From the sequence record NC_018854.1: DNA of 64,000 nt. One strand, given 5' to 3'. Every line of letters begins with the position of its first letter. The first letter of the stretch is position 1. A program made the translations under genes and the position numbers. Positions 56,897-63,216 of the stretch are shown in pieces. The notes beneath the pieces are model-generated. The model saw only the letters and a list, made by a program, of their open reading frames with translations, did not search any database and was not told where the DNA came from. Origin of the DNA: Escherichia phage ECBP1.

Positions 56897-59167
56897 TTAT
56901 AAGTTCATACCAAGAGCCGATGCTGGGTCTTGGCTAGGGTCATAAAATTGGGAACTAAGAGAATAAGTCGGGTCTTGCTGTGCAGCTAAGTCACGTTCCT
57001 GTAAAGAGTTCCCGTTAGTCAAAGCGTTATATCCGACAGCAGCAGATATGTTGGGGGTAGTTTCACCTTCTTTAGTAGGTGTTGTCAACGCCTTAGTTAT
57101 TTGAAGGTTCTGGTTTCCTTGAGATTGTGCTTTTTGTTTTTCCATATCACGAGCATGTTTAGTACCAGATTCCTGTTCCAGATAATCCAGGTCTTTAAGG
57201 TCACCACTAGAAATAGCTTCTTTAGCCTTAGCATTATTGAGTGCAATCTTACTTTTCAACTCTTCATTCTCAAGCTGTGCTTTTTGAATTGCCAATTGCT
57301 TAAGCTGTTCTTCCATAGGGTCTGGTTGTGGTCGCCAGGTACGTAATTCATGAGCAAGGTCTGGCATACGCTTAAGTTCTGCAATTTTAGCTACGAGAGA
57401 TAATGTAATAGTCTGGTCAACTGTATTACCTAACGTTTGAACCATGAAGCTCAAGTCCTGAGATTTCTGGTTATCAATTTCAGCAGTATTAATATCAACC
57501 TCAATATCGAAATTACCTTTAAGGTCTTCACGGTTAATTTCTACGTACTGTTCATTGGTAATACGTACTACTTCCTTCTCAGATAAGAATACGGCATTCA
57601 TTGCACAAATCTTAGTACCAATGTCTGCCATACCCTTAGCTAATCGACGAAGGATTGCCATCTCACGTTTGGATGCTGCATCGAGTGCACCACGAATACC
57701 AGCAGCCACATCTCCATAAGCTGCACCAGTTACACCTCCAGAGAATGCTTTAACACCAGTTAGTGCTTCTGCTTCCTGGTTCTGCATCTGAGTCATAACT
57801 ATTGCCGACTGAGGTAACTCAGGGAACTTATGTTCCATAATGGCCTGACTAGGGTTGCCCTGCATTGGGTTATACTCATAGTCTTGTCCGTCATCATATC
57901 GACGTCGGTTCAGAGTATCTAACATCCCTTTAGGATAACCACGCTGCCCGTTTGCACTTCGACCTAACAGGTCAATCATCCCACGCATAGTTGCACCAAG
58001 AATTGCTTGGTTATCTCCTAACAATTCTGCATCTGCTTCACCGTAGAGTTCACGTTTACGTGGCATGTATGGAACAACTACCAAAGGTAACTTACCATCA
58101 GGGAATGGGTTCTTCTCCATACGAATAAGAGTAGAACCAATCCAGGTAGCAACAATCGGTTCCAGTGAACCATCATCATTAATGTCGTAAAATCCCCAGT
58201 ATTCATAAGCGACTACTTTCTTACGTAGTGCATCTTTAAACTGGAAGTCACCAGGAGTTTTACTTTCATGGTCTGGGTCAGTCATAGGACTGGAACTTTC
58301 CCAGTCAATCTTATCCAAATTGTGATAACGGTCTTTGTTCTTCATGAGGTCTGCTTTGCACGTCTCAAACGAGATAACTGCATACAGAGCCTTGTCCAAA
58401 TCACCATTACAACTCGGGTCAATAACTACGTTATTAGGATTAAGCATTTCAACAGTAGGTCTGTTAACCAGTGCCTTCTCTACCTCTACCTCAGTAACTC
58501 CAGTCTGGATTGCATAAGTAGCTTCTCCAGTTTCATTGAAGTAGTTAACAGCTTCCTTAATATCTTCCGGCATTGTTTCGTCATACTCACGGGGATTTTC
58601 TGCCTGAAGCTGTAAAGCCTGCTGAAGAATATCTGCTTGTTCCTGGTTCTCAATTGGATACAACTGGAAGACTGGTGTTTCTGTTTTAATCTTAACGGTC
58701 TTACGTTCCCAACCAATACGGGCAATACCAGTACCATCATCTACGACACTATGTACGTAATCATCCACCAGTTTTACTTTATTAAGCTGGGTACGGAATT
58801 GGTAGTTAAGAACTAATTCATTCTGTCGTGCAGCTAACTCATCCTCAAAAGTAACAGGGGTTACCTTAAAGAGTTTATTAGATGAGAGAAATGGTTCAGA
58901 TAATGGTGCATAACGCCACTCTGCCTGACGGCGAACCAGTCTAGGTTGGACTTGTGAGCGTCCTTTAACCTTTGGGGGTTTAGCCTTGCCTTTGACTTCC
59001 ATCAAGTCATTCCACTCACGAATCTGAGCCATGATTGCATCGTGAGCAGGTTTAGCTGATTCCAAATCACCCTTCAGTAATTGGATACTTGGTTCCTTCT
59101 TCCAGTCCGTTAACTTCTCTGATTGAGCCGGGTCTGGTAAAGGCTTAAAAGTGTCTTGGTGTTCCAT
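56897..59167 (-). CDS. portal protein (by size and synteny)
   Basis: 756 aa; sits between the lysis cassette and the capsid module. Confidence 0.6.
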
Positions 59168-59169
59168 AG

Positions 59170-59697
59170 TTATTCCTGTTCAAAAAGTTTACGGTCAGCC
59201 TGAATCTGTTTACCCAACTCAATTAGTTGGCTGTCACGGAGTCTAACAGTTGCCCGGAGTTCTTCAACCAAACGTCTGCCTTCTTCAAGACTGTTGTCGA
59301 GTCTGGCTGCATGGCTTGCAAGACTTCTGCACTCAAAGGTTCCGGCTTCGGCTTGACGTTTATATACCGATGCTCGTCTTTCAGACTGTTGCATCCGGCT
59401 GTCATAATCACTGCTAACGCGAGCAAGCTCGCTTGCGTAATTACTCTCAGCCGTCTGCAACCGGGAAGTGAGTAACCCGACTTCGTAACTATGGTTTCTT
59501 TGGAGAGCATTGTATTTGTCCTGTAATTTTTGTAGTGCCTTCTGATCTTCAACCTTTTGGGCATCCCACTTCTTTTGAACAGTAGACTGTCCATTGGAAT
59601 TACCCCAAAAGTAAATGGTGGCCCCGAGGACCACCACCAGAAGATAAGGCCAACCTTTAGAGATTAGCATCTTCATTACATGCCTCCAGTGGCACAT
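59170..59697 (-). CDS. i-spanin (Rz-like)
   Basis: N-terminal TM helix then coiled-coil-like sequence; start may be at an internal Met. Confidence 0.5.
59223..59510 (-). CDS. o-spanin (Rz1-like lipoprotein) embedded in the +1 frame of the i-spanin gene
   Basis: [12 protein letters not shown] lipobox-like segment, then Pro-rich KPKPEP; start uncertain (track ORF 59223-59594). Confidence 0.4.
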   Translation of the reverse strand: MLSKETIVTKSGYSLPGCRRLRVITQASLLALAVIMTAGCNSLKDEHRYINVKPKPEPLSAEVLQAMQPDSTTVLKKADVWLKNSGQLLDSVTAN

Positions 59698-60292
59698 TGC
59701 CTATTCGGTTAGCTACCCAACCATACGTAAAGTCTGGCATGTTTAATGAGGTGTAGTGGTTAAGTTGTTTAGCATCAAGTAACTTAATCATTACCTGACA
59801 TGCTGCAACTTTGCCTCGTTTTTTCTGTAATGCTTTATATGCATTAACAGTACTTGTACCGACTTTACCATCAACCTGTATTTTAGGGTAGTCTTTGCCA
59901 TCACGGGACATTTCATTAAGAGATTGCTGCAACCACTTAGCCGGACGGGTTACACCCGTATTAACACCAGCATCTACCAGCTTATGTGTTACAGCAGGAG
60001 ATATATCAGCGAAGGCTACGAAGTTAGGCTTAAGTACGTAATCATCAATGTATATCTCAGCAGCCATCTCTTTAGATAAACCCTTCATAGAACCATCCCA
60101 GCCATACTCAGTAGCCAGAACTTCTTTGTGAGATTTAGCTACAGCTTGGGTAATACCATGATTGGTTTCACCACCTGGGTCACGAGGATTATTTACATAT
60201 CCCCCTTCCATATAAAACACTGCCCCCAGGATAGCAGCGACAACTCCTCCCACTGCACCACCTTTCGTAGCAAGTTTCTGTTTAGCTTTCAT
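59657..60292 (-). CDS. signal-anchored (SAR-type) endolysin, GH108-like N-acetylmuramidase
   Basis: N-terminal GGAVGGVVAAILGAVFY then EGGYVNNPRDPGGETNHGIT. Confidence 0.6.
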   Translation of the reverse strand: MKAKQKLATKGGAVGGVVAAILGAVFYMEGGYVNNPRDPGGETNHGITQAVAKSHKEVLATEYGWDGSMKGLSKEMAAEIYIDDYVLKPNFVAFADISPAVTHKLVDAGVNTGVTRPAKWLQQSLNEMSRDGKDYPKIQVDGKVGTSTVNAYKALQKKRGKVAACQVMIKLLDAKQLNHYTSLNMPDFTYGWVANRIGNVPLEACNEDANL

Positions 60293-60542
60293 GTGAATCT
60301 TCCTTTGATCGGAATCGTATTAATCTGCCTACAATATTTAAGGCAAACAGCGCGATTGCAATATTGGAACCATGGGGAATATCTTCCAGGATGTGACGAG
60401 GTAATCCTGTCAGCATTGGTTGAATGATATCTATGGTAGAAAACATAATTAACCCGAGCGTACTAATCTGGATGGATGCCCACTTCCAGCATCTTTTCCA
60501 GTTAGGTACTAACTCTACTTTTCTTTTTAGCCTGCGAACCAT
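60282..60542 (-). CDS. holin-like membrane protein (two TM segments)
   Basis: ISTLGLIMFSTIDII and IAIALFALNIVGRLI with charged C-terminus; start at internal Met (track 60282-60608). Confidence 0.35.
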   Translation of the reverse strand: MVRRLKRKVELVPNWKRCWKWASIQISTLGLIMFSTIDIIQPMLTGLPRHILEDIPHGSNIAIALFALNIVGRLIRFRSKEDSHES

Positions 60543-60856
60543 GCGAATATCTCCCGTCTTGCAGCAGCCAATACACCAATAATTGCACCTGCCCCAGCCC
60601 ACACCCACTTACCAAAAATTCCAGCACCAACAACTTTATGCTTAATGGTGATGAACTCTTCAATAGTAGGTTCATTCTTAGCTAAGCTATCCTCCACATT
60701 TTTTAGTCTATTGCCTATGTCATTGATTGAATCCCGTAGTTCTACCAGAGTTTCCTCCAGCTTCTCACGATCCTGCCTGTCCCTTGTCTGGTTCTCAAAC
60801 AGAGTCTTCAATCGTTCCTCCAGTCTGACTAGAAGCAGTTCACCTGATTCATTCAT
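60527..60856 (-). CDS. coiled-coil protein with C-terminal TM anchor (possible lysis regulator)
   Basis: Charged helical N-terminus then GAGIFGKWVWAGAGAIIGVLAAA. Confidence 0.4.
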   Translation of the reverse strand: MNESGELLLVRLEERLKTLFENQTRDRQDREKLEETLVELRDSINDIGNRLKNVEDSLAKNEPTIEEFITIKHKVVGAGIFGKWVWAGAGAIIGVLAAARREIFAWFAG

Positions 60857-61068
60857 AAAATTACCGTAGTGATGTAGTTAGATTCCCCAACAGGGCCATA
60901 TCATAAGATGACTCTTAGATAATACTTAGTATGATGGGATACATCCAGACATAGTGTCTGGTAGCAACCCATGGTGGATGGTATTCAGTTAGGTATGTTT
61001 AACATATCCGGGCAAGTAATTACCCTAACAGCAGTATCGGTTAGGGTAATGCAAACAGTAACTCTATA

Positions 61069-61092
61069 TAAGAAAAGGCCCAAACTGGGCCT
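61069..61092 (-). terminator. intrinsic terminator after the tail gene
   Basis: Minus strand reads ggccc-agttt-gggcc followed by ttttctt. Confidence 0.5.
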
Positions 61093-61101
61093 TAGTTTTA
61101 A

Positions 61102-63216
61102 TTAAATCAATCCGTAAACTGCATTGTGTATTACGACGCCCCCAACAACTGAAGAAACATTAAAATTAATTTCAGCTTTGTAGGCTCCTTGTGGAACGCA
61201 ATCCACCAAAGCATAAAAGTTGAACGTGTTTACCACTGGGATGATATATCCTATGGAATCCGCAACAGCATTTCCTTGCTGGTCCAGGAATCTAATTGAC
61301 GCCAGGGTGGTTGTTGTATTTTTAGCCCAAAAACCAAGCTGAAAATAACGACCCGGTTCACAATCAATGATTGTTTGAGTGAAGTTAGCTGCTGCATCTG
61401 CTGATGGTACAGATAAAACAAAAGAAGTTGTAAACATTAAATCGTTAGGAACATCGTTTGCTGTAGTAGCAGTGACAGCACCTGTTCCAGTTTGAGAGAG
61501 TGTCCAGTTAGATGTATTTCCAAACTGTCCTGAGCCATTGCTAATACTATTAATATAAGGGCTTACAATGCTTCCTAGATTCCAGTTAGTTGTAATAAAG
61601 CCTGCACGAGGGAAGCACCCTCTAGACATTACTTTCTTGCTAGAGCCACCTATCAACTGTCTTGTGGCAAATCCAGTAGCAATCGTTGTGTTACCGTAGA
61701 GGGGCAATGAGCAGTTATTTAAACTAACTACCCCGTCACCATTACTAGCAATAGGCACTGTACTGTAGCCTTCCGGAAGCAGAATAGTAGAATCTTTAAT
61801 ACTGAGGCGTGAGCTTCCACTCACAGTAAAGCCTACAAAGCTCTGCCCAGGTTGATACTCAATATTACCGTTAGCAAATACTAGGGTAGCATTATCACTT
61901 AATGCCACTGCTGGATCGAAGTAGCCTGCCTTTTTACCTGCTGGTAATGAGCATGAATCAAAGATGAACTGCCCATTCTCAAAAGTAAATGGACCCCCAT
62001 TATCAACCATCCAGCAGTGGTTGAATTTTATAACCTCACCAGTATTAGCCGGGGAATTAAAGATTACAGAGTTAGTAAAACTGCGAGAAATAGTGCACTT
62101 ATCAAATAGAATACGGTATGCATTATCTTTAAACTCAATACCTGCGGTAGATATAAACCCACAGTTAGATATACGTAATTCTGCTATCTCCCCTCCAGTA
62201 CTACTACCCAAACACATCTTTCGAGTACCTTTACCTACAAAGGAAATACCTGTTAATAGGGCAGTAGCATTAATGGCATCACGAGCTGTGTAATCCGTAT
62301 TAGAGTTGATTATGGTTAAGTAATACTCTCCTGTTACACCTTCCAGTTCCGTAAGGGTACACTTATTAGCTCCTACTAAAGCCCCCTTAGCTACATCCAG
62401 TAAGATAGGTGTACTGATAGTCCCTGATGTAGGTACAAGACAATCGTAACCGGCAGAGTTTACCTTGTTAATGAATGGGGCAATATCCCCCGTACCAGTA
62501 TAACCTGCATCATATACCGTAGCAGTACCTTCAAAGAACTTACGCTTCCAGACCACACCTGCACCGGTGAAAGTTACAACTTCATCTACAGGAGTAGTAT
62601 TAGGAACCGCAATCATAATACCCCCACCAACGGAAGAGCCTGAGTATGAATCTAGCATTACACTAGACCCTACTGTTGCTCCGACAGAAGCCAGGGCAGT
62701 TACGTCAGGTACACTACCAATTAAGGTCATACCATCCTGAGATGCCAACTGAGCACGCAAATTAGGATCCGTTTGAGACTTCCAGTCCGTGTTGCCAACA
62801 GGGTTGGTCCCTTCAACAATAGTTACGGGTAGAGAACCTAAGTAGGTATAACCAATACCATTATGCATCAAAAGCTCATTTCGAGTATTTACTACTAAGC
62901 CCGTAGTAAATGAATCAGATAAGCATACAAACTCTCTACGTGCAGCAGCCAGTTCACCCAAATCAACTGTACCTGCTGAATGAACCAAGACTGCATGTTC
63001 ACTGAGACTTACAGCAATGGTTCCTGCTGGAAGTACAGGCAATGAGTAAGCACGTTGAGTAGTCTTGTCATAAATGACTTTGTATCCACCCAAGTCTACT
63101 CCTACAGAAAAGTAGACCACTTCATTCTGCTTAATACCAAACTTACGGGCAATGGCTTGCTTGTTGGTAAGAATACCAGTGGAACCTTTACCGCCTTGAC
63201 TGAACATCTCGTTCAT
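61102..63216 (-). CDS. tail fiber/tailspike-like protein with probable beta-helix
   Basis: 704 aa; repetitive G/S/T/N-rich beta strands (ISNCGFISTAGIEFKDNAYRILFDKCTISRSF). Confidence 0.5.
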   Translation of the reverse strand: MNEMFSQGGKGSTGILTNKQAIARKFGIKQNEVVYFSVGVDLGGYKVIYDKTTQRAYSLPVLPAGTIAVSLSEHAVLVHSAGTVDLGELAAARREFVCLSDSFTTGLVVNTRNELLMHNGIGYTYLGSLPVTIVEGTNPVGNTDWKSQTDPNLRAQLASQDGMTLIGSVPDVTALASVGATVGSSVMLDSYSGSSVGGGIMIAVPNTTPVDEVVTFTGAGVVWKRKFFEGTATVYDAGYTGTGDIAPFINKVNSAGYDCLVPTSGTISTPILLDVAKGALVGANKCTLTELEGVTGEYYLTIINSNTDYTARDAINATALLTGISFVGKGTRKMCLGSSTGGEIAELRISNCGFISTAGIEFKDNAYRILFDKCTISRSFTNSVIFNSPANTGEVIKFNHCWMVDNGGPFTFENGQFIFDSCSLPAGKKAGYFDPAVALSDNATLVFANGNIEYQPGQSFVGFTVSGSSRLSIKDSTILLPEGYSTVPIASNGDGVVSLNNCSLPLYGNTTIATGFATRQLIGGSSKKVMSRGCFPRAGFITTNWNLGSIVSPYINSISNGSGQFGNTSNWTLSQTGTGAVTATTANDVPNDLMFTTSFVLSVPSADAAANFTQTIIDCEPGRYFQLGFWAKNTTTTLASIRFLDQQGNAVADSIGYIIPVVNTFNFYALVDCVPQGAYKAEINFNVSSVVGGVVIHNAVYGLI

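Follow-up and report, generated by a model that had tools for sequence, protein, structure and literature searches.

A probable N4-like lysis module with an embedded spanin gene in Escherichia phage ECBP1

In coliphage N4, the lysis cassette gp63-gp62-gp61-gp60/gp60a has been dissected by complementation in a 2025-26 preprint (Awuah et al., bioRxiv 10.1101/2025.11.12.688109; Awuah et al. below). There, the lysis trigger is gp63, a pinholin with a single C-terminal transmembrane domain (TMD) that complements the phage 21 pinholin S21 and not the holin lambda S105. The N4 gp62 protein is a non-essential lysis regulator with late, triggerable holin activity, gp61 is a SAR endolysin that works with a pinholin and behaves like R21, and the gp60/gp60a pair fully complements lambda Rz-am/Rz1-am; the cassette alone is sufficient to lyse E. 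coli, in about 25 min (Awuah et al.). The N4 endolysin was first described by Stojkovic and Rothman-Denes in 2007, as cited in the same preprint. The S21/R21 system of phage 21 and Lyz of P1 fall into the same mechanistic class, in which a small-hole holin depolarises the membrane and a tethered endolysin is released, and lambda Rz/Rz1 represent the same nested, +1-frame spanin architecture.

The lysis cassette and its relatives

The window analysed here is a 64,000-nucleotide stretch of Escherichia phage ECBP1 (NC_018854.1), and it is 100% identical to the IMG/VR isolate contig IMGVR_UViG_2595698805_000001. The source is a Gamaleyavirus, G7C/Bp4-like, of the Schitoviridae. A compact lysis cassette had been proposed at 59170-60856 from the sequence alone, and every element of that preliminary description was found there, as five genes that all lie on the (-) strand. 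The features of the locus, with the evidence for each, are as follows.

60527..60856, (-) strand: gp63-like putative pinholin (ORF list; PHROG 5211; N4 gp63 homology)
60282..60542, (-) strand: gp62-like, two-TMD holin-like putative lysis regulator (DUF7940; PHROG 1356; N4 gp62 homology)
59657..60292, (-) strand: gp61-like predicted SAR endolysin (PF05838 and PF09374; PHROG 315; N4 gp61 homology)
59170..59676, (-) strand: gp60-like i-spanin (PHROG 6197; Shine-Dalgarno (SD) sequence; AF2 model; N4 gp60 homology)
59223..59510, (-) strand: embedded o-spanin, gp60a-like, +1 frame (lipobox; conservation in 12 relatives; St11Ph5 start)
59604..59638, (-) strand: terminator-like hairpin inside the i-spanin TMD-coding region (folding, covariation, PhAPEC7 record)
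61075..61093, (-) strand: intrinsic-terminator-like hairpin of the upstream tail-spike gene (scan, folding, relatives)

N4 has the same five genes, in the same order, on the same strand and with the same overlaps, between tail-fibre and portal genes, and the proteins are 58-72% identical. At the nucleotide level the cassette is ~97% identical to phage Bp4/PD38, and 86 phage records match it. The Gamaleyavirus relatives G7C, St11Ph5, Bas96 and Bp4 (95-97% nucleotide identity) already annotate Rz/Rz1 spanins, an N-acetylmuramidase and a holin; the spanins appear as gp60.1/gp60.2 in St11Ph5, as gp60' “embedded within ORF60” in G7C, and as an annotated o-spanin in Bas96. Across the relatives' GenBank records all five genes are annotated, with embedded o-spanins and the label “SAR endolysin N-acetylmuramidase” among them. 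The cassette is thus already known, being annotated in close relatives and having an N4 counterpart dissected experimentally. We regard the locus as very probably the ordinary, late-expressed lysis module of an N4-like (G7C-type) podophage, and we assign its members with similarly high confidence as a pinholin, a further holin-like protein that regulates lysis, an endolysin tethered to the membrane, and an i-/o-spanin pair with a nested gene. Direct observation covers the structures of the genes, their motifs and reading frames, their homology and the fact that both overlapping frames are conserved; the biochemical roles given below are those predicted from N4 homologues of 58-72% identity.

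Pfam and PHROG searches gave family matches for all four larger proteins. NCBIfam gave no family for four of the five cassette proteins, and the fifth gave a muramidase match far below threshold. An Rfam scan of 58900-61300 returned a single sub-threshold chance match (Clostridiales-1, 20.7 bits vs 48), and PADLOC returned only weak coiled-coil-type matches (E about 0.004), none of them defence-related.

Pinholin candidate, holin-like regulator and endolysin

The gp63-like protein (109 aa) consists of a helical cytoplasmic N-terminal part, a conserved “Receiver” segment, PTIEEFITIKHK, and one C-terminal TMD, which is rich in Gly and Ala (VVGAGIFGKWVWAGAGAIIGVLAAA) and is the only hydrophobic segment (residues 80-99). 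It is 69% identical to N4 gp63, with near-identity over the Receiver/TMD segment and the stretch PTIEEFITIKHKVVGAGIFGKWVWAGAGAIIG, and its gene immediately precedes the gp62 and gp61 homologues. The Receiver segment, the single C-terminal TMD and the gene position together place it in the N4 gp63 pinholin family. The sites of N4 rapid-lysis mutations, T65 and T71, are kept as T64 and T70. The protein matches PHROG 5211 (E=3e-50), where the function is unlabelled, and none of Pfam, PHROGs and NCBIfam has a labelled family for it; a single-sequence AF2 model is all-helical at low confidence (pLDDT 53). S21 has two TMDs, the first of them SAR-like, whereas the gp63-like protein combines a long cytoplasmic N-terminal domain with one TMD at its C-terminus, and it is not a member of the S21-type class II pinholin family. 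Several relatives' records label the gp63 homologue a “tail length tape-measure protein”; these labels are annotation errors.

Two further candidate features of the gp63 gene were rejected. An internal start, TTG 60811 with a GGAGGA SD, corresponds to an ATG in N4 (Met17), but as a conserved feature it fails, this position not being a start codon in G7C, Bas96, KP8, Axy13, HN01 and Jgk1. A third-frame ORF, 60675..60502, contains a lipobox-like LVSGC, which we attribute to chance arising from Gly/Ala codons; both N4 and Bas96 have a Tyr in place of its Cys, and in N4 the frame lacks an ATG.

The gp62-like protein is 86 aa long from ATG 60542, which has a GGGAG SD 8 nt before it; a longer form of 108 aa, beginning at GTG 60608, is possible. 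The preliminary description had noted two small membrane-protein genes overlapping by about 16 to 80 nt, and these correspond to 60856..60527 and 60542..60282, with one and two TMDs, respectively, and an overlap of 16 nt from ATG 60542 or 82 nt from GTG 60608. The long-form start is a GTG here and an ATG in N4. Conservation of these starts (GTG 60608/60602, ATG in N4) was considered as evidence of a dual start and rejected, because Lys-Trp and Val-Trp codons in the gp63 frame force ATG/GTG and mostly NTG at these positions. The protein is 65% identical to N4 gp62 and belongs to the gp62/DUF7940 holin-like family, with matches to DUF7940 (PF25612, E=3.7e-14, 53.5 bits vs a threshold of 27) and to PHROG 1356 “holin” (E=1e-30). 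With two hydrophobic segments, seven Lys/Arg among its 20 N-terminal residues and charges at the C-terminus, it is predicted to have an N-in/C-in topology by the positive-inside rule.

The database label raises the question of which protein triggers lysis. It is conceivable that the roles are reversed relative to the N4 model, with the gp62-like protein acting as the true holin, of class II, and the gp63-like protein as an antiholin or regulator. The gp62 homologues are called “holin” by PHROG 1356 and by most GenBank records, and for phage Piffle the Center for Phage Technology lists the upstream coiled-coil gene as “putative antiholin” and the gp62 homologue as “holin class II”. N4 gp62 alone, moreover, acts late after induction, releases lambda R and R21, and is lethal after CCCP (Awuah et al.). 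However, deletion of N4 gp62 left plasmid-driven lysis unchanged, gp63 alone killed immediately in addition to complementing the S21 defect, and, among >60 plaques, all rapid-lysis mutants in the N4 lysis cassette fell in gp63 or gp61 and none in gp62 (Awuah et al.). A gp63 deletion was recovered only with compensating mutations in the SAR domain (Awuah et al.), and a scan for the gp63 Receiver motif gave no match to the Piffle “antiholin”. We consider a reversal of roles unlikely; despite its label, gp62 probably does not trigger lysis, a function for which the gp63-like protein is our candidate.

The endolysin (211 aa) begins with MKAKQKLATK-GGAVGGVVAAILGAVFY-MEGGYVNNPRDPGGETNHGIT and is 70% identical to N4 gp61. 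The segment GGAVGGVVAAILGAVFY is weakly hydrophobic, Lys-flanked and made of Gly or Ala at 9 of 17 positions (53%). The predicted SAR domain (about residues 11-27, nt 60262..60212) directly abuts the EGGY...DPGG motif with no linker (M-EGGY, EGGY from residue 29). Basic residues followed by a weak, Gly/Ala-rich TMD fused to the catalytic domain are the sequence features of SAR endolysins, and the SAR domain and EGGY/DPGG are common to this protein and N4 gp61. The SAR endolysin with EGGY...DPGG of the preliminary description is therefore borne out by the Gly/Ala-rich N-terminal segment directly before the motif and by the homology to N4 gp61. Membership of the GH108 N-acetylmuramidases is indicated by EGGY, by PF05838 above its gathering score (72.5 bits vs a cut-off of 21.2, E=4e-20) and by a C-terminal PG_binding_3 domain (PF09374, 34.4 bits vs 24.6); the protein also matches PHROG 315 endolysin. 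The NCBIfam holin-associated N-acetylmuramidase NF040573 scores 59.4 bits against a cut-off of 240 and is related, not an equivalog. A GH108 EGGY...D.GG domain followed by PG_binding_3 is also found in 6v3z (Sen1395; E=3.6e-27, residues 23-197 aligned), in 6v40 and in Neisseria 2ikb, and in the alignment nothing in these solved chains corresponds to the N-terminal SAR segment. As a GH108 muramidase, the enzyme differs from those of the phage 21 and P1 systems, which have a T4-lysozyme-like fold.

Export by Sec without cleavage and release dependent on the proton-motive force (pmf) would carry over from N4 gp61. The N-terminus might instead be a cleaved Sec signal peptide or a stable signal anchor, and small residues (V-A-A, G-A-V) do occur inside the hydrophobic stretch. 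Its high Gly and Ala content, its flanking Lys residues and its direct junction with EGGY argue against this, as does N4 gp61 itself, which is pinholin-compatible, leaks slowly alone and becomes a rapid lyser on addition of a charge (G12E; this Gly is kept here as G15) (Awuah et al.). We judge such an alternative very improbable and retain a releasable SAR domain as our reading. Position-independent Hessa free-energy sums, which failed to distinguish the SAR segment from ordinary TMDs, were dropped.

The nested spanin genes

The i-spanin (168 aa, 59676..59170) has a GGAGG SD 6 nt before its ATG; use of the upstream ATG 59697 is unlikely because it lies before this SD. An N-terminal TMD (about residues 9-24) is followed by a long helical periplasmic domain, and the single-sequence AF2 model (mean pLDDT 76) contains helices 9-110 and 116-167 with a break at 111-115. 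This type II topology with a two-segment, largely helical periplasmic domain is that of an i-spanin, and lambda Rz is likewise a type II i-spanin with two periplasmic helical domains. The protein matches the Rz-like spanins of PHROG 6197 (E=9e-78) and is 58% identical to N4 gp60. There is no detectable sequence homology to lambda Rz/Rz1, and no Pfam family of that kind matched, the sole sub-threshold hit being DUF2514 (14 bits vs 26); the i-spanin belongs to the N4 gp60 family rather than to the lambda Rz/Rz1 sequence families. Truncated gp60 calls in several relatives' records are annotation errors.

An Rz1-like ORF wholly inside the Rz-like gene in the +1 frame had been described, and coordinates and frame agree: the o-spanin ORF lies entirely within the i-spanin gene, out of frame, with ATG 59510 being 166 nt past the i-spanin ATG (166 mod 3 = 1). 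From this ATG it encodes a 95-aa precursor, with a predicted signal of 39 residues and a mature lipoprotein of 56 residues, and it is 72% identical to N4 gp60a. The h-region is followed by C-N-S, and the lipobox MTAG-C (nt 59405..59391, Cys codon 59393..59391) matches a PROSITE-style pattern and has Asn, not Asp, at +2, as expected for sorting to the outer membrane.

Could the embedded +1 ORF be a fortuitous open frame that is not expressed? It has no PHROG, Pfam or NCBIfam match, it is left unannotated in several GenBank relatives, and its start codon lies unusually far from the lipobox. However, the +1 frame of the i-spanin gene is stop-free for 146 codons, as against only 19 for the +2 frame, and in synonymous resampling of the same protein (n=5000) the longest +1 run was 59 +/- 17 codons and 146 was reached in only 0.08% of cases. 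In 12 relatives from at least three subfamilies, including phages whose i-spanins are only ~40% identical, the lipobox and its Cys are retained and the mature lipoprotein has 54-63 residues, most often 56; the doubly coding stretch is the best-conserved part of both spanins. The complementation of lambda by the N4 pair also stands against a chance frame (Awuah et al.). The probability of a fortuitous ORF is, in our estimate, close to nil: the embedded frame is not a product of chance.

The o-spanin start had been called ambiguous, with a long N-terminal region before the lipobox. Three ATGs are indeed available (59594, 59564 and 59510), which would leave 67, 57 and 39 residues before the Cys, and comparison narrows the choice to 59510, which lies 39-40 codons ahead of the Cys in all the related lineages compared and is the start annotated in St11Ph5. 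From these alignments we infer ATG 59510 as the start. Codon 37 of the long embedded ORF is ATG in 10 of 12 sequences, whereas this phage and the identical IMG/VR contig have ACG there, and therefore the start used in the Bas96 annotation is absent from this genome. Likewise, the N4 o-spanin, which is also embedded in the +1 frame and also has a mature form of 56 residues, has a canonical short start (MKSLLILLLTSTIVG followed by the Cys, 15 residues) that is absent here, leaving only the distal ATG and its 39-residue signal. The PROSITE lipoprotein rule places the Cys at positions 15-35, with Lys or Arg near the N-terminus; counted from ATG 59510, which alone among the canonical starts is conserved, the Cys is residue 40, outside that range, and a Lys is at position 4. 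This geometry is a heuristic rule and not a functional requirement.

Lambda differs in several details. The mature o-spanin has 56 residues here and 40 in lambda, and it is not Pro-rich (4 Pro); unlike in lambda, it lacks a periplasmic Cys, and the i-spanin contains a single one, in an ECRSL motif. The o-spanin ORF begins at 0.33 L, as compared with the usual 0.4-0.5 L. Lipid modification, processing by signal peptidase II and disruption of the outer membrane by the o-spanin would follow by analogy from the N4 complementation. The complementation of lambda lysis defects that the preliminary description put forward as a check has been carried out on the N4 homologues (Awuah et al.).

Transcription signals and a proposed lysis pathway

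Two hairpins may bear on the transcription of the cassette. The one at 61075..61093, which belongs to the upstream tail-spike gene, is intrinsic-terminator-like and consists of AAGGCCCAGTTTGGGCCTT and TTCTTATAT; an equivalent GC-rich hairpin with a T-run is found in St11Ph5, G7C, Bas96 and KP8, and this element delimits the lysis transcription unit on its upstream side. A sigma-70 promoter scan found no (-) strand site upstream of gp63, with counts equal to the shuffled expectation; the scan is uninformative because N4 late promoters are only remotely like sigma-70 promoters.

The second hairpin, 59638..59614, begins 19 nt past the endolysin stop codon, inside the i-spanin gene. It reads GGTGGTGGTCC-TCG-GGGCCACCATT, then TACTTTTGGGG (element to 59604), and its MFE is -23.5 kcal/mol (z=-3.9). 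In the alignment, from which KP8 was left out as its hairpin is in a shifted register, 94% of the cells are paired and 5 of 10 pairs have changes on both sides; the covariation score was reached by 0 of 500 shuffles. N4 has a hairpin of different sequence at the same position, and the PhAPEC7 record lists the element as an ARNold-predicted “terminator”. The family-wide enrichment of hairpins in the i-spanin gene is partly due to TMD-coding composition: when the SAR-coding region is taken as a control, the median rank is 0.24 vs 0.20 for the hairpin segment, and the top rank is reached in 3.7% vs 20%. We tentatively suggest, as a possible but doubtful reading, that the hairpin is a conserved terminator or attenuator that splits the cassette, so that gp63-gp62-gp61 would be carried on a short transcript and the spanins and portal gene would be expressed via read-through, and, separately, that the o-spanin would have to be made with an unusually long 39-residue signal, the shorter start of sister phages being mutated to ACG here.

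Most likely, the cassette works as in phage N4. The gp61-like endolysin would be exported by Sec, its weakly hydrophobic SAR helix at the N-terminus keeping the enzyme inactive and tethered in the inner membrane, while the gp63-like protein would build up in the same membrane via its single, glycine-zipper-like C-terminal TMD. At a set time, the latter would form small depolarising holes, the proton-motive force would be lost, and the SAR helix would leave the bilayer, so that the released GH108 muramidase could refold and degrade peptidoglycan all around the cell. The gp62-like protein (two TMDs, N-in/C-in) may modulate the timing and could form lethal holes of its own late. Once the wall is gone, the i-spanin, anchored in the inner membrane and with two periplasmic helices, and the lipoprotein o-spanin, anchored in the outer membrane, would be joined via their C-terminal regions and disrupt the outer membrane. 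G7C-type phages are reported to lack the lysis inhibition of N4, and therefore the control of timing may differ from that in N4.

As a discovery, this textbook-class lysis module carries small weight. Its practical use lies in curation, with starts fixed at 59676 for the i-spanin, 59510 for the o-spanin and 60542 for gp62. If the hairpin in the i-spanin gene is a true terminator, it would be a modest case of a membrane-helix coding sequence that also carries a transcription signal.

Layout of the lysis cassette and its relatives

Five closely packed minus-strand genes lie between the tail-spike gene (end 61102) and the portal gene (start 59167), and their ORF coordinates give exactly the boundaries drawn in the preliminary description, 59170-60856. 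Named after their phage N4 counterparts, they are as follows.

Genes of the cassette
60856..60527, minus: gp63-like gene, 109 aa
60542..60282, minus: gp62-like gene, 86 aa, Shine-Dalgarno (SD) GGGAG; an alternative GTG start at 60608 gives 108 aa
60292..59657, minus: endolysin gene (gp61-like), 211 aa, SD AAGGAAG
59676..59170, minus: i-spanin gene (gp60-like), 168 aa, SD GGAGG 6 nt upstream
end 59223, minus: o-spanin (gp60a-like), +1-frame ORF entirely within the i-spanin gene

The overlaps, in gene order, are 16, 11, and 20 nt, and the portal ATG lies 2 nt from the i-spanin stop. The first of these joins the two small genes already seen to overlap upstream of the endolysin, and it grows to 82 nt with the GTG at 60608.

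The window is 100% identical, at the same coordinates (12 kb checked), to the IMG/VR contig IMGVR_UViG_2595698805_000001 (69,855 nt), a complete G7C-like genome. The 86 phage records that match the cassette belong to N4-like podophages (Schitoviridae, Enquatrovirinae), with the Gamaleyavirus phages Bp4, PD38, St11Ph5, and pSb-1 at 95-97% identity. The system is already known; the preliminary observation is confirmed and its interpretation supported. The G7C record places gp60' "embedded within ORF60", the St11Ph5 record lists gp60.1/gp60.2, and those of Bas96 and AlfredRasser annotate an o-spanin and an i-spanin; the Stenotrophomonas phages Philippe and Piffle carry "SAR endolysin N-acetylmuramidase", "holin class II", and i-/o-spanin labels. 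Annotation errors recur in the GenBank records of Bp4, PD205, KP8, Kuerle, and PhAPEC7, among them gp63 homologs mislabeled "tail length tape-measure protein" and gp60 cut to its last ~74 codons with the embedded o-spanin left out.

Family searches agree with these assignments for most of the proteins. The i-spanin matches PHROG 6197 "Rz-like spanin" (E=9e-78), and the endolysin matches Pfam GH108 (72.5 bits, cut-off 21.2), PG_binding_3 (34.4 bits, cut-off 24.6), and PHROG 315, as well as the PDB entries 6v3z (E=3.6e-27) and 6v40 (E=2.5e-20) in an alignment spanning EGGYVN.P.D.GG. The gp62-like protein falls in Pfam DUF7940 and PHROG 1356 "holin", and the gp63-like protein in PHROG 5211 (E=3e-50), a family without a function label. 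Pfam and PHROG searches of the cassette proteins returned no family match for the o-spanin, as is usual for such short lipoproteins.

Three hairpins were found on the minus strand of the 245-nt intergenic spacer upstream of gp63 (60857-61101), in which no promoter was identified.

Hairpins of the spacer
61093..61075, minus: tail-spike terminator hairpin
61050..61019, minus: hairpin with a perfect 11-bp stem and a 10-nt loop, absent from St11Ph5
60972..60934, minus: hairpin CAGACA-cta-TGTCTG, common to St11Ph5

At window position ~60969, Bp4 carries an extra insert of ~540 nt with an opposite-strand ORF (orf14).

The embedded o-spanin and its start

The embedded spanin pair proved to be more than a chance open frame, as judged by the open +1 frame, the lipobox, and the mature peptide kept across relatives. 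Within the i-spanin gene the open stretch is 146 codons long in the +1 frame and just 19 in the +2 frame. When the i-spanin protein and phage codon usage were held fixed in 5000 resamplings, the longest open run in the +1 frame was 59 +/- 17 codons on average, and runs of at least 146 arose in 0.08%. The embedded frame encodes a lipobox (13 residues followed by the Cys, codon 59393..59391, with Asn at +2). Twelve relatives share the lipobox Cys and have mature peptides 54-63 residues long, most of them 56 (St11Ph5, Bp4, Bas96, G7C, Jgk1, N4 with its isolate AlfredRasser, KP8, Axy13, Piffle, Meara, Kuerle, and HN01); the lipobox of Philippe was missed by the motif scan and recovered in a later comparison. 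The part read in two frames, 59223-59393, is the most conserved of both spanins across Schitoviridae, with 27 residues of the o-spanin and 24 of the i-spanin. This peak fits the view that the shared DNA of embedded spanins encodes their interacting C-terminal regions (PMC6139136).

In a single-sequence AF2 model (mean pLDDT 76), the i-spanin is predicted to form helices at residues 9-110 and 116-167, the TMD-helix-break-helix layout expected for an i-spanin. The DNA of the mature o-spanin also encodes residues ~95-151 of the i-spanin, which take in the break and the greater part of the second helix. A single periplasmic Cys (ECRSL) is present in the i-spanin, though not in that of Philippe or Meara, and none in the o-spanin.

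The o-spanin start is indeed ambiguous in the window sequence, with ATGs 67, 57, and 39 codons ahead of the Cys and no usable start nearer to it than -39: a TTG at -11 would leave no n-region, and the others are the rare codons CTG at -19 and ATT at -16. In four relatives the -57 ATG is cut off from the -39 ATG by a stop codon. The Bas96 annotation starts at the -31 ATG, which 10 of 12 sequences have; the window and the identical IMG/VR contig carry ACG instead, and this ATG is also missing from the relative L030 and from KP8. An ATG at -39/-40 is found in all Enquatrovirinae lineages examined (the window, L030, a further relative L031, Bas96, Jgk1, KP8, and N4), behind a purine-rich SD (AGGA, AAGGGTGA or AAGGTGAGA) in the Gamaleya-like and KP8 lineages. 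The shared ATG, its SD, and the stops and losses at the other starts argue that the o-spanin would be best placed at 59510..59223 (minus), the start also used in the St11Ph5 annotation. A start at 59510 gives a 95-aa precursor with an unusually long signal peptide of 39 residues, outside the PROSITE rule that puts the lipoprotein Cys at the classical 15-35. N4 has an additional canonical 15-residue option (MKSLLILLLTSTIVG|C), whereas the clade of the window lacks it. The ORF spans 0.33 to 0.89 of the i-spanin length; most embedded spanins start at 0.4-0.5 and end at 0.9-1 (PMC6139136).

Alternative starts and an intragenic hairpin

The long-form gp62 starts (60602-60608, minus; GTG here and ATG in N4) were rejected as evidence for a dual start. 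Their codons fall on the Lys-Trp and Val-Trp codons of the gp63 TMD, which force ATG/GTG and mostly NTG, so that their conservation is not independent evidence. The annotated gp63 ATG at 60856 has a poor SD (ACGGTAATTTT), and an in-frame TTG at 60811, 15 codons downstream, lies behind a strong GGAGGA (GGAGGAACGA). This TTG occupies the position of the N4 alternative start Met17, where no start codon was found in G7C, Bas96, KP8, Axy13, HN01, or Jgk1. The overlap of gp63 and gp62 is spanned by a third open frame (60675..60502, minus; 57 aa, lipobox-like LVSGC), which leaves all three frames open around 60527-60608. This third frame was rejected as a gene, its Cys being Tyr in N4 and Bas96 and N4 having no ATG in that frame, and most likely results from Gly/Ala codons.

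A stable hairpin lies within the TMD-coding sequence of the i-spanin gene (59638..59614, minus), 19 nt past the endolysin stop codon. It reads GGTGGTGGTCC-TCG-GGGCCACCATT, then TACTTTTGGGG; with its T-rich tract it covers 59604-59638 and codes for 12 TMD residues. Its MFE is -23.5 kcal/mol (z=-3.9), which places it in the top ~23 for stability when 40-nt hairpins on both strands of the window are ranked. At the equivalent codon position, N4 carries a hairpin that differs in sequence and is stronger (GGGGTAGCTC-TGG-GAGCTACCC, then TTTTTCTTCTT), and compensated variants occur in L030, L031, and Jgk1. In a small alignment of 7 sequences, 94% of cells are paired, and both sides have changed in 5 of 10 pairs; the covariation score was reached by none of 500 shuffles, and slid registers are 37-60% paired. 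TMD-coding segments are more structured in general, with a median rank of 0.24 for the SAR control vs 0.20 for the i-spanin segment; the control ranks top at only 3.7% of loci vs 20% for the i-spanin segment. The PhAPEC7 record has an ARNold "terminator" at this site, which seemed intergenic because gp60 is truncated there. Of the termination sites mapped in the N4-like phage LUZ7, 47.5% fall within the following gene, just past the preceding one (PMC9163698). The hairpin may serve as an attenuator within the gene, set between the endolysin and the spanins/portal; that it acts as a real terminator or attenuator we regard as possible and rather doubtful.

The N4 pathway as a model for ECBP1 lysis

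A preprint (10.1101/2025.11.12.688109) reports, for N4, the experiments that the preliminary description had proposed. By itself, the N4 gp60-gp63 cassette lyses E. coli in ~25 min; gp63 kills immediately and complements the pinholin of phage 21, though not lambda S105, and gp61, with a Gly/Ala-rich, Lys-flanked signal-anchor-release (SAR) domain, works with a pinholin and leaks out unaided (10.1101/2025.11.12.688109). N4 gp60/gp60a, whose mature o-spanin has 56 residues, fully complements lambda spanin ambers, and the dispensable gp62, named "lysis regulator", shows late triggerable hole formation (10.1101/2025.11.12.688109). Rapid-lysis mutations map to the "Receiver" segment of gp63 and to the gp61 SAR domain (10.1101/2025.11.12.688109).

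The window proteins are 69, 65, 70, 58, and 72% identical to N4 gp63, gp62, gp61, gp60, and gp60a, respectively. The N4 mutant sites T65/T71 of gp63 and G12 of gp61 are conserved as T64/T70 and G15, and the family shows almost no variation in the Receiver-plus-TMD segment of gp63; the low-confidence AF2 model of gp63 (pLDDT 53) supports the helical prediction only. Together with the N4 results, this identity and the conserved mutant sites point to the N4 pinholin/SAR-endolysin/spanin pathway as the best-supported candidate mechanism for the cassette, whose gene anatomy and homology we observe here and whose biochemical steps we infer from N4. Since G7C is reported to show no lysis inhibition (10.1101/2025.11.12.688109), the control of lysis timing in ECBP1 may differ from that in N4, despite the conserved Receiver residues of gp63.
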